NCBI GenBank assembly: GCA_963749075.1
Contig: CAVVLJ010000020.1
Coordinates: forward strand, 576,001 to 640,000
Source: an uncultured Pseudomonadota bacterium
Lineage (GTDB): Bacteria; Pseudomonadota; Alphaproteobacteria; JACZXZ01
Direction of reading: 5' to 3'
DNA: 64,000 nt
Part shown: positions 7,781-13,376 of the stretch, piece after piece
How the letters are laid out: every line of letters begins with the position of its first letter
Numbering within the stretch: position 1 is the first letter of the stretch
Position numbers and translations under genes: made by a program
The notes under the pieces: model-generated
Told to the model about the DNA's origin: nothing
The model's input: the letters and a program-made list of their open reading frames with translations, nothing else
The model's database searches: none

Positions 7781-8422
7781 TCAAGCGCCGAGGCGCAGCA
7801 CCCGGCCGCCCGCGGCACGGGCGTCCGCCGCGTCGTGGGTGACGAGGAGTGCGGGCAGCGCGCGCAGCACTATGTGGCCGAAGACGAAGCGGCGGAACTC
7901 CTCGCGCAGCGCCGCATCGAGCCTGTTGAAGGGCTCGTCGAGGAGGAGTGCCTCCGGCTCGGCGAGGAGGATGCGCAAGAGCGAGACGCGCGCGCGCTGG
8001 CCGCCCGAGAGCGTGGCCGGATCGCGCCGCGCGAAGCCGGCGAGCCCCGCCTCGCCGAGTGCCGCCTCGATGCGGGCGCCGCGCTCGGCCTTGCCGCGCA
8101 CCGCGGCTGCCAAGCCGAAGGCCAGGTTGCCGCCGACCGAGAGGTGCGGGAAGAGCAGGTCGTCCTGGAAGAGGATGCCGAGGCGGCGCTCCTCGGGCGG
8201 CAGCTCGGTGACCTCGCGCTCGCCCACGAAGACGCGGCCGCGCGCGCTGAAGGCGGGGTCCGCGGTGCCGCAGATGAAGGCGAGGAGCGTCGACTTGCCG
8301 GCACCGCTCGCTCCCATGATCGTCACCACCTCGCCCGGCGCCACGGCAAGATCGAGCGCCGGCACGAGGATGCGGCCGGCAAGCGCCAGCTCGACGCCTT
8401 CGAGGCGGAGTGCCCCGCTCAT
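7781..8422 (-). CDS. ynjD: ABC transporter ATP-binding protein (YnjD-like)
   Basis: Walker A GASGAGKS, FQDDLLFPHLSV, LSGGQ, LLLDEPF; start overlaps the permease stop. Confidence 0.85.
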   Translation of the reverse strand: MSGALRLEGVELALAGRILVPALDLAVAPGEVVTIMGASGAGKSTLLAFICGTADPAFSARGRVFVGEREVTELPPEERRLGILFQDDLLFPHLSVGGNLAFGLAAAVRGKAERGARIEAALGEAGLAGFARRDPATLSGGQRARVSLLRILLAEPEALLLDEPFNRLDAALREEFRRFVFGHIVLRALPALLVTHDAADARAAGGRVLRLGA

Positions 8423-10149
8423 CCCGGCCGCACGTGCCCGCGCCGCCAGGCCGAGAGTGCGGCGGGAAAGAGGATGGCAAGGCCGAAGGCGAGGAGCGGC
8501 AGGAGCGACTGGAGGAAGGCGTAGACCGCGATGACGCGGCGGTCGGCACCCGCGGCGAGCGTCACCGCCTCGGTCGTCAGCGTGGCGAGCCGGCCGGCGC
8601 CGGCAAAGACGGTCGGCAGGTACTGGCCGACGCTGACCGCGAAGCCGACCGCGGCGGCGATGAGGAGCGGGCGCAGCAGCATGGGGAGCTTGACGCGGAG
8701 GAGGACGCGCGCCGGCCGGGCGCCGAGGCAGCGCGCCGTGCGCGCGTAGCGCGGGTCGAGCGCGCGCCAGGGATCGGCGAGCGAGAGGAAGACGTAGGGC
8801 AGCACGAAGAGGAGATGGGCCCAGACGACGGCGGCGAAGGTGCCGTCGAGGTCGAGGCGCAGGAGCAGCACTTGCGCGCCGAAGAGGAAGGCGATCTGCG
8901 GCACCAGGAGCGGCGCGTAGAGGAGCCAGAGCGCCTTGGCACCGGCGCGGGCGCCGCTCTCCTCCTCGTTCTCGAGGCAGGCGAGGGTGAGCGCGAGCGC
9001 GAGCGCCGTCGCCGCGAGCGCCACGGAGCACGTCGTCGCGGTGGGCCAGGCGAGGCTCCTGAGCGCGTGCCGCCAGGTGGCGAGCGTCCAGCCGCCCGGC
9101 AGGCTCGCGGGAAAGCGCCAGGCCGAGGCCACGGACCAGAGGGCGATGCCCAGCATGCTGAGCATGCTCAGCATCATGAGGAGGAGCGGGGCCAAGGCGG
9201 CCAGGCGCAGGCCCGGCTCGGCCGCGCGCCCGCGGCCGCCGCGCGCGATCCAGCGCCGCCCGAGCGACCCGGCCGCGGCCTCGCCCAGGCGCCAGAGGCC
9301 GGTCGCCGCGGCGACGATGGCAAGGAGCAGAGAGGCGGCGGCGGCGGCCGGGAAATAGAGCGTCACGTCCGGGTTGGAGAACCAGCGCAGGGCGAGCACC
9401 GCAAGCGGCGGCGGATTGCCCGGCCCCAGGATGAGGGCGATGTCGACGACCGAGAGCGAGAAGGCGAGTACGGCATAGACCGGCAGGCGGATCTGCGGAT
9501 AGATCTGCGGCAGCACGATCTTGATCCAGGCGACGCAGCGGCCGTAGCCGAGCGCCCGCGCCACGTCGAGCTGGGCACGCGCCGGCACCTGGTTGAGGGC
9601 GGCGAGCGTCATGAGGAGGAGGTAGGGCACCTCCTTGACGAGGAGGCCCAAGACGAGGGCGAAGCCCCAGGGATCGCCCACGCTCGCCACGTCGGGCGGC
9701 AGCGTCCAGCCGGTGAGCCACGGCGAGACGAGGCGGGCAAGCCAGCCGCTCGGCGCCAGGAGGAAGGCGAGCCCGATCGCCATCGCCGAATGGGGCGAGG
9801 AGAGGAGCGGGGCCAGCATCGCCTGCACGCCGCGAAAGGCCGGCCGGCCATGGGCCCAGGCGCAAAGCGCCACGGTGAGCGCGAGGGCGGCCGCGGTGGC
9901 GGCAAGGCCGGTCGAGAGCGTGAGACGCAAGGCGGTGGCGAAGCCTGGATGGGCGAAGAGCTGCCGCCAGGGGGCGAGGCCGAGGTGCGCGCCGCCGAGT
10001 GCCGGCAGGTAGCCGAAGGCCGGCAGCAGCGTGCCCAAGAGCCCCGCCGCGATCGGCAGCAGGAAGGCGGCGACGGTCGCGGCGGGTGCCGCGCGCAGCA
10101 GGCGGCCGGCGCGCCGCGGCCGCGCGGCAGCGAGAGCGCCGCGCGGCAC
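8419..10149 (-). CDS. ynjC: ABC transporter permease (YnjC-like, duplicated TM domain)
   Basis: Many TM segments, PAFGYLP, LYAPLLVPQIAFLFG; GTG start overlaps the upstream TAG. Confidence 0.85.
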   Translation of the reverse strand: MPRGALAAARPRRAGRLLRAAPAATVAAFLLPIAAGLLGTLLPAFGYLPALGGAHLGLAPWRQLFAHPGFATALRLTLSTGLAATAAALALTVALCAWAHGRPAFRGVQAMLAPLLSSPHSAMAIGLAFLLAPSGWLARLVSPWLTGWTLPPDVASVGDPWGFALVLGLLVKEVPYLLLMTLAALNQVPARAQLDVARALGYGRCVAWIKIVLPQIYPQIRLPVYAVLAFSLSVVDIALILGPGNPPPLAVLALRWFSNPDVTLYFPAAAAASLLLAIVAAATGLWRLGEAAAGSLGRRWIARGGRGRAAEPGLRLAALAPLLLMMLSMLSMLGIALWSVASAWRFPASLPGGWTLATWRHALRSLAWPTATTCSVALAATALALALTLACLENEEESGARAGAKALWLLYAPLLVPQIAFLFGAQVLLLRLDLDGTFAAVVWAHLLFVLPYVFLSLADPWRALDPRYARTARCLGARPARVLLRVKLPMLLRPLLIAAAVGFAVSVGQYLPTVFAGAGRLATLTTEAVTLAAGADRRVIAVYAFLQSLLPLLAFGLAILFPAALSAWRRGHVRPG

Positions 10150-11477
10150 TATCTCGTGTAGCGCTGCTCCCATTCCGCGGCGATCCGGGTCATCCAGGAG
10201 GGATGCGGCTCGAGCAGCACGTTGCCGAGCTCGGCAGGGGTGGGGAGTGCTGGGCTCTGCGGCAGCTCGGCGAAGAGCTTCTGCTCCTCGGGCGCGAGCT
10301 TGTCCAAGTCGAGCACCGTGAGGCTGCCCATCTGGCGGATGTCCTCGGCATGCGCCTGGGTCGCGGGTGCCAGGAGGAAATTGGCGACCACCATGGCGCC
10401 GGCCTTGTGCGCGGCGTTGTAGGGGATGGCGACGAAGCTCGTGTTGCCGATGGTGCCGCGCGCGAGCGTCGCGGTGCGCACCGAGGGCGGCAGCAGGCCG
10501 GCCGCGATGTCGACCGCCGCCTCGGCCGGATTGAAGGAGATCATCATGTCGAGCTCGCCGTCGTCGAGGAGCTGGCGCATGGCCGGCCCGCTCGCGGGGA
10601 ACTCCCGGCCGCCCCGCCAGAGGAGCGGGCGCAGCGCGTCGTACCAGGACCACAAGGGCGCCGTCACCGCAGCGAAGCTCGCATCGCTCGCCGGCTCCTG
10701 CAAGCGCGCGGGATCGGGTGCGAGCTCGTAGAGCGCCTGCTTCAAGAAGGTGGCGCCGAGGAAATTGCGCACGGCCGGATGGGTGAAGCGGCCGGGATGG
10801 CGGCGCGCCCAGGAAAGAAAGTCGGGGATCGAGCGCGGCACGTCCTCCACACGGGCGCTGTCGTAGACGAAGACGACCTGCGCCATGCGCCACGGCGATT
10901 CGAGGCCGTCCACGGGCACCGTGAAGTCGACGAGGTTGGAGGGCTTGTGGCGCGTGTCGACGTAGCGCATGTTAGGCAAGCGATCGGTGAACGGTCCGTA
11001 GAGCAGGTGCTGCTCCTTCATGGCGAGGAAATTGGGCCCGTTGATCCAGACGAGGTCGACCGCGCCGCCGGCGTCGCGGCCGGCCGCCTTCTCCGCCACC
11101 ACGCGGGTCACCGCCTCGGCGGTGTCGCTGAGCGGCACCTGACGGAGCGTCACGCCATAGCGCCGGCCCACCTCTTGCCCCACCCAGGCGATGAAGTCGT
11201 TGGTCTTGGCGTCGCCCGCCCAGGCGTTCCAATAAACGGTCTCGCCCCGCGCGCGGGCGAGGATGTCGTCCCAGCCCTCGCTGCGTGCCGCGTGGGTCGC
11301 GAGGATCAGGGCGAGGAGTGCGAGGGAGACGAGTGTCAGGCGCCTCGGCCCGCCACGACCCCCCTCCCTACCCTCCCCCTCAAGGGGGGAGGGGCATTTA
11401 CTTGTTATGCTATGCGATGTGCACCCCCTCCCCCCTTGAGGGGGAGGGTTGGGGAGGGGGGTAGGACAGGCGCTCAC
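10149..11477 (-). CDS. ynjB: ABC transporter substrate-binding protein (YnjB-like) with an in-frame palindromic insert in the N-terminus
   Basis: VYWNAWAGD, DLVWINGPNF, GNTSFVAIPYNA, EPHPSW; GTG start overlaps the radical SAM TGA; no ATG/GTG between the insert and the signal h-region. Confidence 0.85.
   Translation of the reverse strand: MSACPTPLPNPPPQGGRGCTSHSITSKCPSPLEGEGREGGRGGPRRLTLVSLALLALILATHAARSEGWDDILARARGETVYWNAWAGDAKTNDFIAWVGQEVGRRYGVTLRQVPLSDTAEAVTRVVAEKAAGRDAGGAVDLVWINGPNFLAMKEQHLLYGPFTDRLPNMRYVDTRHKPSNLVDFTVPVDGLESPWRMAQVVFVYDSARVEDVPRSIPDFLSWARRHPGRFTHPAVRNFLGATFLKQALYELAPDPARLQEPASDASFAAVTAPLWSWYDALRPLLWRGGREFPASGPAMRQLLDDGELDMMISFNPAEAAVDIAAGLLPPSVRTATLARGTIGNTSFVAIPYNAAHKAGAMVVANFLLAPATQAHAEDIRQMGSLTVLDLDKLAPEEQKLFAELPQSPALPTPAELGNVLLEPHPSWMTRIAAEWEQRYTR
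11358..11462. repeat. 105-bp palindromic element, family A (CCCTCCCCC-TCAA/TTGA-GGGGGAGGG double hairpin)
   Basis: Arms ACCCCCCTCCCTACCCTCCCCCTCAAGGGGGGAGGGG and CCCCTCCCCCCTTGAGGGGGAGGGTTGGGGAGGGGGGT are near-perfect reverse complements around an AT-rich spacer. Confidence 0.9.
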
Positions 11478-12538
11478 GCGCCGCGCTCCCTCGCCGCACG
11501 GCGCCGCTCGCGCGCCGCGGCGAGCACGGGCCCCAGCATCTCCTCGTGGAAGCGGTCGCAGCCGATGCAGAGGTTCCGGTAGGGGCGGCCCGCAGGCGTC
11601 GCGGTCGACGAGCGCTCCAGGAAGCGCTCCTCGCTCCAGCCCTGGGCGATGCCCATGCGCTCCGGATGCCCCATCGAGATCGCCTCGTAGGCGGGAACGC
11701 CCGTGAGCGAGTCGAGGATGTCGATGAGGCCGTCCTCCAAGAGGCTGCCCAACGGCAGCTTGGTCTTGATGCAGCACGGGTAGAGGCTGCCGTCGGGCTC
11801 GACGGAGACCTCCGAGCCGCTGTAGCGGTGGCTCAGGAAATTGAGCCCGCCCGACCAGCGATTGCAGAAATTGTCGGCGAGCGTGGCGCGGCTGAGGTCG
11901 TTCTGCCAGGCGCGGCCGCGCGGCCACAGCTTGCCGATCCAGGAGTCGGGCGTGGCGCCGAAGAAGCTGTAGTACTGCCCGCTCTCCTCGTGCCACTTGC
12001 GGCTCTCCGAGGAGAGCCCGGAGGGCGCCATGCCGTGGCGCTCGAAGAGGCGCGAGAGCTCCTCCATGAAGGCGGCCTGGCGCTCGGCCCCCTCGAGGCC
12101 GACGTGGTAATCGTCCACGCCGGCGACGGAGATCATCGAGACGCCGCGAGAGAGGAGCTCGTCCACGATTCTGTCGGTCACGAGATCGCCGGTCGTCTGC
12201 ACCACGATCTTGACGCCGCCTTGGGCCGCATAGCGGCGCGCGAGCCGCTCGATGACCGGATAGGTGACGCGCTCGCGCACCTCGTCGAGGAGGCACTCGC
12301 CGCCCGAGAGGATGACGCGGCCGACCTTCTCGGCAAGCGTGCCGTCGGCTTGCGGCTCGTCGCGGTCGAGATAGGTCATGCGCTCGGGAAAGTGATCGAC
12401 GATGCGGGGGAAATTCGCCGCCGCCTCGGCGAGGACGCCTGCCAGCCCCTCGCGCACGTAGGGATGGAAGCGCTCCTCGTAGCAATGGCGGCAGCGCCGG
12501 TGGCAGGCCCAGCTCATGACGTAGTAGATCGATTCCAT
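11474..12538 (-). CDS. Radical SAM protein with a C-terminal Cys-containing (SPASM/Twitch-like) region
   Basis: CHRRCRHC (CxxxCxxC), SGGE motif, C-terminal FCNRW...PDGSLYPCC...CIGCD. Confidence 0.9.
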   Translation of the reverse strand: MESIYYVMSWACHRRCRHCYEERFHPYVREGLAGVLAEAAANFPRIVDHFPERMTYLDRDEPQADGTLAEKVGRVILSGGECLLDEVRERVTYPVIERLARRYAAQGGVKIVVQTTGDLVTDRIVDELLSRGVSMISVAGVDDYHVGLEGAERQAAFMEELSRLFERHGMAPSGLSSESRKWHEESGQYYSFFGATPDSWIGKLWPRGRAWQNDLSRATLADNFCNRWSGGLNFLSHRYSGSEVSVEPDGSLYPCCIKTKLPLGSLLEDGLIDILDSLTGVPAYEAISMGHPERMGIAQGWSEERFLERSSTATPAGRPYRNLCIGCDRFHEEMLGPVLAAARERRRAARERGA

Positions 12539-12572
12539 GGGACTCCCCGGCCTCGCCTCGGCGCCGGCGCGC

Positions 12573-13376
12573 TTACGCCTGCGGCCGCCAGCGAAGAAGA
12601 TAGCGCTCCACGCGCTCGATCGCGAGGTCGATGCCGAGCACCACGATCGAGGTGAGGATGAGGCCGGCGAAGACCCCGGTGGTGTCGAAGACGCCCTGCG
12701 CCTGGGCCACCACGTAGCCGATGCCCTTGGAGGCGCCGATGTACTCGCCGACCACGGCACCCACGAGTGCGAAGCCGATCGAGGTATGGAGGCTCGAGAA
12801 GATCCAGGCCATGGCCGAGGGCAGATAGACGTGGCGCATGAGCTGATGGTCGGAGGCCTGCAGCATGCGCGCGTTGTTGAGGATGACGGGATCGACCTCG
12901 CGTATGCCCTGAAAGGTGTTGAAGAACACCACGAAGAACACGAGCGTCACGCCGAGCGCGATCTTGGAGGCCATGCCGAGCCCGAACCAGATGATGAGGA
13001 TGGGGGCGAGGATGACGCGCGGCAGCGCGTTCATGACGCGGATATAGGGGTCGAACACGGCGGCGAGGAGCTCGACCCGCGCGAGCGCCAGGCCTGCCGC
13101 GACGCCGGTCACGATGCCGATCGCGAAGGCGGCCATCGCCTCGGTGAGCGTCGTCGCCAGATGGATCCAGATGTAGCCGGTCCAGATCCACTGCGCCATG
13201 CGCAGGGCGATTTGAGACGGCATGCTGAAGAAAAAGGGATCGAGCCAGCCCGTACGCGAGAGCGCCTCCCAGGCGCCCATGCTCGCCGCGAAGAAGCCGA
13301 TCCGCAGCGCGAGGATGAGCCGGCGGCTCGTCCGCTTGCGCGTGACGACGACGGCGGCGCTCTGCTCACGTGCCAC
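12573..13376 (-). CDS. ABC transporter permease, NitT/TauT family
   Basis: NALPRVILAPILIIWFGLG, GAVVGEYIG motifs. Confidence 0.9.
   Translation of the reverse strand: MAREQSAAVVVTRKRTSRRLILALRIGFFAASMGAWEALSRTGWLDPFFFSMPSQIALRMAQWIWTGYIWIHLATTLTEAMAAFAIGIVTGVAAGLALARVELLAAVFDPYIRVMNALPRVILAPILIIWFGLGMASKIALGVTLVFFVVFFNTFQGIREVDPVILNNARMLQASDHQLMRHVYLPSAMAWIFSSLHTSIGFALVGAVVGEYIGASKGIGYVVAQAQGVFDTTGVFAGLILTSIVVLGIDLAIERVERYLLRWRPQA

Follow-up and report, generated by a model that had tools for sequence, protein, structure and literature searches.

The stretch of DNA analysed here (the window, 64,000 nucleotides (nt) long) is part of contig CAVVLJ010000020.1 of a metagenome-assembled genome, denoted G000 (5.49 Mb, 23 contigs, 96% complete, 68% G+C), from a soil alphaproteobacterial lineage. 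All genes and features of the locus described below lie on the minus strand of the window. The gene in question is a ynjB-like gene encoding the substrate-binding protein of an ABC transporter (10149..11477; 442 codons, insert counted). A copy of a 105-nt palindromic repeat (11358..11462) lies within this gene, close behind its start codon, and adds 35 in-frame codons. The encoded protein matched the NCBIfam model NF008633 (YnjB-type, PRK11622) with 494.2 bits against a cut-off of 203, with residues 51-440 corresponding to profile positions 9-396 of 397, and it also matched Pfam SBP_bac_8. The first ~42 residues fall outside the NF008633 profile.

Immediately upstream is a radical-SAM/SPASM gene (11474..12760, start coordinate provisional; Pfam PF04055 and PF13186), which is also found upstream of ynjB in five congeners and in many remoter orthologous loci. 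Its TGA stop codon (11474-11476) overlaps the GTG start codon of the ynjB-like gene (11475..11477) to form GTGA. The putative Shine-Dalgarno sequence of the ynjB-like gene, AGGGAG (11486..11491), falls within the last part of the radical-SAM open reading frame (ORF), 8 nt ahead of the GTG, and is unpaired in the predicted RNA fold.

Read along the gene strand, the start region runs GTG AGC GCC TGT CCT, then the 105-nt element (ACCCCCC...GGGGGGT), then CGT GGC GGG CCG AGG CGC CTG ACA CTC. The element separates codon 5 from codon 6, and 12 nt lie between it and the start codon. Codons 2-5 (S-A-C-P, 11463..11474, as read from the sequence and its translation) precede it, and the remainder of the native signal peptide (11280..11357) follows it, so that the translated N-terminus reads V/M-SACP-TPLPNPPPQGGRGCTSHSITSKCPSPLEGEGREGG-RGGPRRLTLVSLALLALILATHAARS-EGWDD. 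Divided by eye, the native remainder consists of a positively charged n-region (RGGPRR), a hydrophobic h-region (LTLVSLALLALILA) and a c-region (THAARS), with the cleavage site read after T-H-A and before ARS. It aligns with the signal peptides of orthologues. The original prediction, made from the letters of the window, had described a 105-bp element that begins and ends on codon boundaries, has no stop codon and adds 35 residues after MSACP, and the sequence and its translation agree with this in every detail. It had also named the GTG coupled to the radical-SAM stop as the sole start ahead of the h-region. This held: the frame contains no other ATG, GTG or TTG from the GTG to the 55th codon behind the element, nor within the 30 upstream codons checked. 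Because the copy is 105 nt long and open in the frame of the gene, the gene keeps its only start codon.

We delimited the copy by its sequence, its inverted repeat and its membership of a repeat family. Its two arms are 36 nt each, 92% complementary and 30 nt apart. The 5' arm on the gene strand (11425..11460) is C-rich, encodes a proline-rich stretch and contains a small hairpin of its own, CCCTCCCCC-TCAA-GGGGGGAGGG, while the 3' arm (11359..11394) is G-rich and encodes mainly Gly, Glu and Arg. Both arms are conserved in the family alignment. The centre, or loop (11395..11424), is variable, is not conserved across copies and resembles the centre of one subfamily only. The Pro/Gly-richness of the extra 35 residues, among which are 3 acidic residues, 4 basic residues and 1 His, follows from the arms being runs of C and G. 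The element has no stop codon in the ynjB frame, and its other two sense frames are closed. Within the window, a 24-nt arm motif was confined to the two arms of the element, with 0 occurrences expected. The G+C content at third codon positions (GC3) is 0.66 in the frame of the element and 0.92 in the rest of the gene, which suggests a foreign origin of the element. A 151-nt RNA around the element was predicted to fold with -111.2 kcal/mol, compared with -73.8 +/- 4.1 for shuffled sequences (z -9.2; 0 of 200 shuffles were as stable), and the element by itself with -90 kcal/mol.

The element belongs to a dispersed family, as the original prediction had proposed in calling it a palindromic mobile element. 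A blastn search of the whole assembly with permissive settings found 117 places, 93 of them at least 85 nt long and counted as full-length copies. The alignment of the 93 copies revealed conserved arms (ACCCCCCACCCCAACCCTCCCCCTCAAGGGGGGAGGGGG ... CCCCTCCCCCCTTGAGGGGGAGGGTAGGGAGGGGGGT) with a small hairpin inside each arm, and a centre of ~25 nt that differs among copies except in a few subfamilies. The 24 partial places include short forms of ~48 nt with one hairpin. Copy lengths ranged from 87 to 119 nt with a mode of 100-101 nt; 20 of the 93 were multiples of three, and a length of 105 nt was found twice. Among the 41 genomes searched, the family was present in all five congeners and in four further genomes, three of which come from the same taxonomic family. 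Summing contig depth over positions 11351-11473 in three metagenome runs from a single soil study gave values of hundreds to thousands, compared with ~8-50 on the flanks, so the repeat or its relatives must be abundant in many organisms or copies of those soil samples. The palindromic repeat family is new and has had no name so far.

We searched for the means by which the family could have spread. The Y1 transposase RAYT (PF01797) was rejected as the mobilising enzyme: there were no matches in G000 or in any of the five congeners, whereas the same search was positive in 6 of 14 control genomes, although incomplete genomes, G000 at 96% included, cannot prove absence. Target-site duplications, TA or other, were likewise rejected, being never clearly above shuffled pairings across the 93 copies (k = 2-9, boundary offsets -2 to +2); at best, k=2 gave 14 matches and k=3 gave 9 among the 93 copies, where the shuffles reached up to 14 and 8, respectively. 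Rfam returned 29 matches at E <= 1, none of which reached the gathering score. These were mostly microRNA-precursor hairpin models and are therefore put down to the chance resemblance that any long hairpin would show. In its build the family is REP/REPIN-like, with no transposase partner found in these genomes and without the target-site duplication that marks a miniature inverted-repeat transposable element (MITE).

At three sites in G000, half elements lie 1.1-1.2 kb apart, and no parent insertion sequence (IS) with the terminal inverted repeats of the family was recognised among them. Two of these sites hold an ISAs1-like transposase gene (domains DDE_Tnp_1_assoc and DDE_Tnp_1) with ends of its own, the IS copies being located inside the small hairpin of family copies, which they split (C16:85631-86937, L205; C17:~242070-243335). 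The repeat family is a landing site for an IS. The third site (C16:759182-760335) holds a single-copy GIY-YIG gene between the two half elements (L204:634-1395, minus strand; 253 residues, LEM-3-like, PF22945 with 35.5 bits). Used as a query, this gene was found once in G000 and in none of 10 relatives, 8 of which carry the repeat, and it was therefore rejected as the cognate enzyme of the repeat. Possibly this nuclease gene is itself mobile and has inserted into a copy of the repeat.

We then compared the locus with those of relatives. The YnjB proteins of the five congeners are 75-78% identical to that of G000, and their alignments begin at query residues 34-50, that is, behind the element. 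At the DNA level, the interval from the radical-SAM stop to the signal peptide is free of the element in all five, in keeping with the expectation that YnjB orthologues of relatives would lack the insertion. Four of the five have a spacer of ~55 nt followed by an ATG (MKRPALLALSLLLG...). Congener G004 has the same GTGA overlap as G000, with the compact signal peptide MSVPGAGRALALLAAALFAGTHARAAG (MSVPGAGRALALL...) directly behind it. This architecture supports the GTG as the native start and bears out the claim that removing the element from the G000 gene restores a compact signal peptide. We extended the comparison to 160 loci from two public collections (80 kept from each). After dropping six with too little upstream DNA, as well as duplicates, 139 distinct loci remained, and 138 of them have an ATG, GTG or TTG 12-40 codons ahead of the aligned start of the mature protein (median 23 codons, taking the farthest such start per locus). 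In G000 the nearest start is the GTG, 64 codons before the mature start. The YnjB tree places G000 on a branch outside the congeners, and the insert is missing from remoter sequences too. The insertion is derived, because the congeners are without the element and 138 of the 139 loci start 12-40 codons before the mature protein. On this sequence comparison it appears to have arisen in the G000 lineage after the split from the five congeners searched.

The placement of the other copies was judged from open frames together with the distribution of G+C over codon positions in this genome of 68% G+C (the GC3 heuristic). By this measure, no coding frame passes through or enters about 85 of the 93 copies, which count as intergenic. 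Only two copies in G000 are intragenic, those in ynjB and in dnaE2. Twenty-two copy/frame combinations, from 21 copies, are open into a downstream coding frame. Of these, 20 have a start codon within 29 codons, which makes the copy a 5' leader; only the copy in ynjB and the one inside dnaE2 have no start nearby. No further copy in G000 was found between a start codon and a coding frame lacking a start of its own. For congener G003 the analysis covered 23 distinct full copies out of 56 matches, among which the dnaE2 copy was again the only intragenic one. An enrichment of in-frame insertions in signal peptides, put forward for testing in the original prediction, was not seen: 1 of 93 copies in G000 and 0 of the 23 copies examined in G003 are located in a signal peptide. 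Purifying selection on random insertions would be expected to leave an in-frame survivor out of about a hundred copies.

Several copies lie at the edges of genes. In six cases an upstream frame with a coding pattern, recognised by the GC3 heuristic alone, enters the element and stops there (C17:512261-512364, C17:1124435-1124524, C21:446082-446189, C16:1055687-1055786, C2:70898-71016 and C14:59142-59246), and these six genes may owe their final residues and stop codon to the repeat. Many copies end 1-13 codons before a downstream ATG, for example C20:682730-682833, C20:384792-384900 and C21:540671-540772. Their 3' arm is rich in purines (GGGAGGGGGG) and looks like a Shine-Dalgarno sequence, which the hairpin would lock. 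The copy C20:367220-367326 is located directly upstream of a gene whose conserved N-terminal stretch begins before the first start codon after the element. Its product begins like what we take to be a PhyH-type dioxygenase, and the gene may start at a GTG or TTG inside the element arm.

Since copies upstream of gene starts are common, as in the 20 of 22 open combinations with a nearby start, the element at ynjB could also be a 5' leader, with translation beginning past it at a non-canonical codon. The only in-frame candidate is a CTG at 11339-11337, just ahead of the hydrophobic core and with a GAGG 3 nt before it. That spacing is short, however, and the product, M-TLVSLALL..., would lack a positively charged n-region. 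CTG starts are rare in bacteria. The upstream GTG is in frame and has AGGGAG at a distance of 8 nt, an architecture also used by congener G004. We therefore regard a start behind the element as highly improbable, and return to the GTG as the candidate start.

The second intragenic copy (C17:39927-40025; L025:1501-1599) is the sole one of the 117 places with same-frame coding on both sides. It is located inside a DnaE2-type error-prone polymerase of 1,087 residues, between WDCTLE and ALRLGFRQVKG. An element-like Pro/Gly-rich segment was found at the same spot of DnaE2 in all five congeners (including L038, L039, L040 and L041). In G003 and G005 both arms of the dnaE2 copy are intact; it belongs to a different subfamily, and its left boundary is ~40 nt further left than that of the G000 copy. 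Either the DnaE2 loop has been hit repeatedly or copies have been converted. In either case, the mature DnaE2 protein holds the repeat family in frame across species, and read-through is evidently compatible with function. The original prediction had explained the tolerance of the ynjB insertion by the cleavage of the signal peptide. This is plausible for ynjB, but the dnaE2 copy shows that cleavage is not a precondition for tolerance.

We also considered whether the contig could have been joined wrongly through the repeat, or homopolymer lengths miscalled, so that neither the 105 nt nor the frame would be real. The sequence comes from a metagenome-assembled genome, and runs of C and G make up most of the element. 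The public contigs of the three DNA runs (one soil study) break at the repeat: none joins across the element and none spans 11474-11514. However, an independent public contig (run X1, record 3) covers 11109-11385 without a gap and with one base difference. All five congeners and many remoter loci share the order of radical-SAM gene and ynjB, and the join is therefore sound. The frame is exactly that required by the only start codon, and the dnaE2 copy of the same assembly is in frame as well. An artefact of this kind is, in our estimate, scarcely credible.

The following scenario explains these observations best. A palindromic repeat of ~100 nt landed in a ynjB-type gene, 12 nt past its start codon, and ribosomes would read through it from the GTG, with initiation probably helped by ribosomes finishing the radical-SAM ORF. 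The pre-protein would then have an n-region of 47 residues instead of ~12. The insertion leaves RGGPRR, the hydrophobic core and the cleavage region unbroken and next to one another; given this, the 35-residue extension would be removed together with the signal peptide. The signal peptide of G000 contains an RR pair, but the congeners have none, and we set twin-arginine export aside as the route. We put the probability that the ynjB-like gene is translated through the element and its product exported at about 60%, a judgement made from sequence.

The state of the gene and its surroundings argues for this scenario. The gene shows no visible decay: it has no internal stop codons, and the profile is covered nearly end to end. 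The root-to-tip length of G000 in the YnjB tree is 0.571, compared with 0.624-0.705 for the congeners, and G000 has a single YnjB match at E <= 1e-30. Downstream, the frames of the other transporter genes are open. A two-domain ABC permease, ynjC-like (8419..10161, an open frame with an approximate start), gave weak matches to NCBIfam permease models, all below cut-offs, and 22.6 bits to Pfam BPD_transp_1 against a cut-off of 26.4. An ABC ATP-binding protein, ynjD-like (7781..8425), matched NCBIfam ABC ATPase models with E down to 3.9e-47, all below the equivalog cut-offs.

Several points weigh against read-through and export. Among all combinations of copy, strand and frame in G000, 268 of 558 are open, and 54 of 558 (9.7%) are open and a multiple of three in length. 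An in-frame, stop-free state is thus reached by chance often enough that the frame alone is no proof of selection for translation or expression. The hairpin of -90 kcal/mol must be unwound during elongation, and the codons of the insert, with their GC3 of 0.66, are unusual for the genome. The independent contig covers the junction facing ynjB and the 28 nt of the element next to it; the rest of the element and the junction facing the radical-SAM gene are seen in one assembly. Among the 80 + 80 loci kept from public genome and metagenome contigs, none was more than 80% identical, and no empty-site allele or conspecific was found. The insertion therefore cannot be dated, and a recent knock-down would look the same.

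Such a knock-down is one rival account. The insertion would have silenced or strongly weakened ynjB, through poor starts or stalling in the hairpin, leaving a young pseudogene or hypomorph whose open frame is due to luck. The hairpin is very stable both alone and with its flanks, it starts 15 nt after the first base of the GTG, an open in-frame state arises in about one in ten insertions, and the insertion is confined to the G000 lineage. Against this, the mature part of the protein shows neither decay nor a long branch, the transporter genes that follow have open frames, opening the ribosome site is predicted to cost the same whether or not the element is there (see below), and dnaE2 retains the repeat family in frame throughout the genus. 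We consider silencing unlikely, though worth taking seriously.

The original prediction had further suggested that the hairpin could tune or block ynjBCD translation. We found no support for this at the initiation step. The predicted energy for opening positions -20 to +19 around the GTG was 34.2 kcal/mol with the element and 34.9 kcal/mol with the element removed in silico, and narrower windows behaved alike. In this model the element is predicted to fold on itself without burying the ribosome site further. A broader form of the idea is that the hairpin has been co-opted as a regulator, coupling ynjBCD to translation of the radical-SAM gene or setting mRNA stability or processing between the two genes. 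The GTGA overlap and a predicted stem that reaches through the flanks nearly to the start codon would fit this, and strong REP-type hairpins affect mRNA stability and termination, according to the excerpt of PMC3733652. The unchanged opening energy does not, nor does a search for intrinsic terminators, which found none on the gene strand in the element and terminator-like matches on the opposite strand. Moreover, the five congeners and 138 of the 139 other orthologous loci do without the element, and a single unconserved copy cannot show function. A regulatory role for the hairpin is very unlikely in our view, and we retain read-through from the GTG followed by export as the preferred account.

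A bolder picture can be drawn from the same material. The family would be a RAYT-less, REPIN-like replicator whose arms of C runs and G runs provide a ready-made Pro/Gly linker in any open frame. It would persist at permissive protein sites, such as signal-peptide n-regions and the DnaE2 surface loop with its two subfamilies in different species. Expression of ynjB would depend strictly on ribosomes arriving from the radical-SAM gene, and the n-region would be a general safe harbour for selfish palindromes across phyla. We regard this picture as speculative and unlikely. Within G000 itself, the two intragenic copies among the 93 mark the places where inserts survive, a signal-peptide n-region and a variable DnaE2 loop. 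If the ynjB-like gene is indeed translated through the element, its 47-residue n-region would be a natural test of an uncharged, Pro/Gly-rich load on a Sec signal peptide. The locus is also a warning for annotation, as gene callers may miss the start or report a 35-residue 'low-complexity' N-terminus.

Palindromic insertions in frame within genes are a hallmark of the Rickettsia palindromic elements (RPEs), and are also described for ERIC, QMITE1 and the MITEs of Anabaena, in the excerpt of PMC10969869. As summarised there from Ogata et al. 2000, RPEs were first reported as ~150 bp long, and nearly half of their copies lie in ORFs. The original prediction's comparison with RPEs is apt as a way of working, given the in-frame, stop-free copies in ynjB and dnaE2. 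Like RPEs as that excerpt describes them, the family consists of short palindromic dispersed repeats that lie in frame within coding genes and are read as an extra peptide where the protein bears the insert. Unlike RPEs, it has 2 of 93 copies within genes instead of nearly half, its members are ~100 nt long and extremely G+C-rich, and its host is a free-living soil alphaproteobacterial lineage. Its peptide varies with the frame of insertion and is not one conserved peptide, the two families being compared here by description. With only 2 of 93 copies intragenic, and 1 of the 23 examined in G003, the G000 family is not a member of the RPEs in any tested sense.

In build the family resembles REP/REPIN sequences as described in the excerpts of PMC3116915 and PMC3733652. 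It shares with them two inverted short palindromic units, a poorly conserved spacer, about a hundred copies, a location mainly between genes and the lack of a target-site duplication. The IS copies inside family members recall ISPpu9 in REPs (excerpt of PMC8450116). REPs carry an end tag of GTAG or CGTC, according to the excerpt of PMC3733652, and GGGTAGGGA is present in the 3' arm of many family copies. In contrast to REPIN-RAYT systems, PF01797 was found neither in G000 nor in the five congeners, and the arms, at ~36-38 nt, are longer than those of classical REPs. With the MITEs found in genes (ERIC, QMITE1 and those of Anabaena, as covered by the excerpt of PMC10969869), the family has in common a small non-coding repeat with inverted ends and in-frame fusions with host ORFs. 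It differs from them in having no target-site duplication of 2-9 nt beyond shuffled controls and no parent IS with the same ends among the sites found.

Among alphaproteobacteria, there is a likeness to Bru-RS1 and Bru-RS2 of Brucella (Halling and Bricker 1994, via PMC10800456), palindromic dispersed repeats of ~103-106 bp with nearby IS activity, again compared by description. However, the copies discussed in the excerpt of PMC10800456 are downstream of zntA, intergenic or precede zntR-zntA, and none is described there as being in a coding sequence. No description of a signal-peptide case was found in the literature on palindromic elements and MITEs with in-frame and signal-peptide insertion, as far as the excerpts of it extend. 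The kind of event is already known, and the insertion opens no new kind of biology. It is a real, well-delimited, derived in-frame insertion into the n-region of a signal peptide. As a clear example of a selfish palindromic repeat lying in frame within a gene, it extends what is known from Rickettsia to an uncultured alphaproteobacterial lineage of soil.

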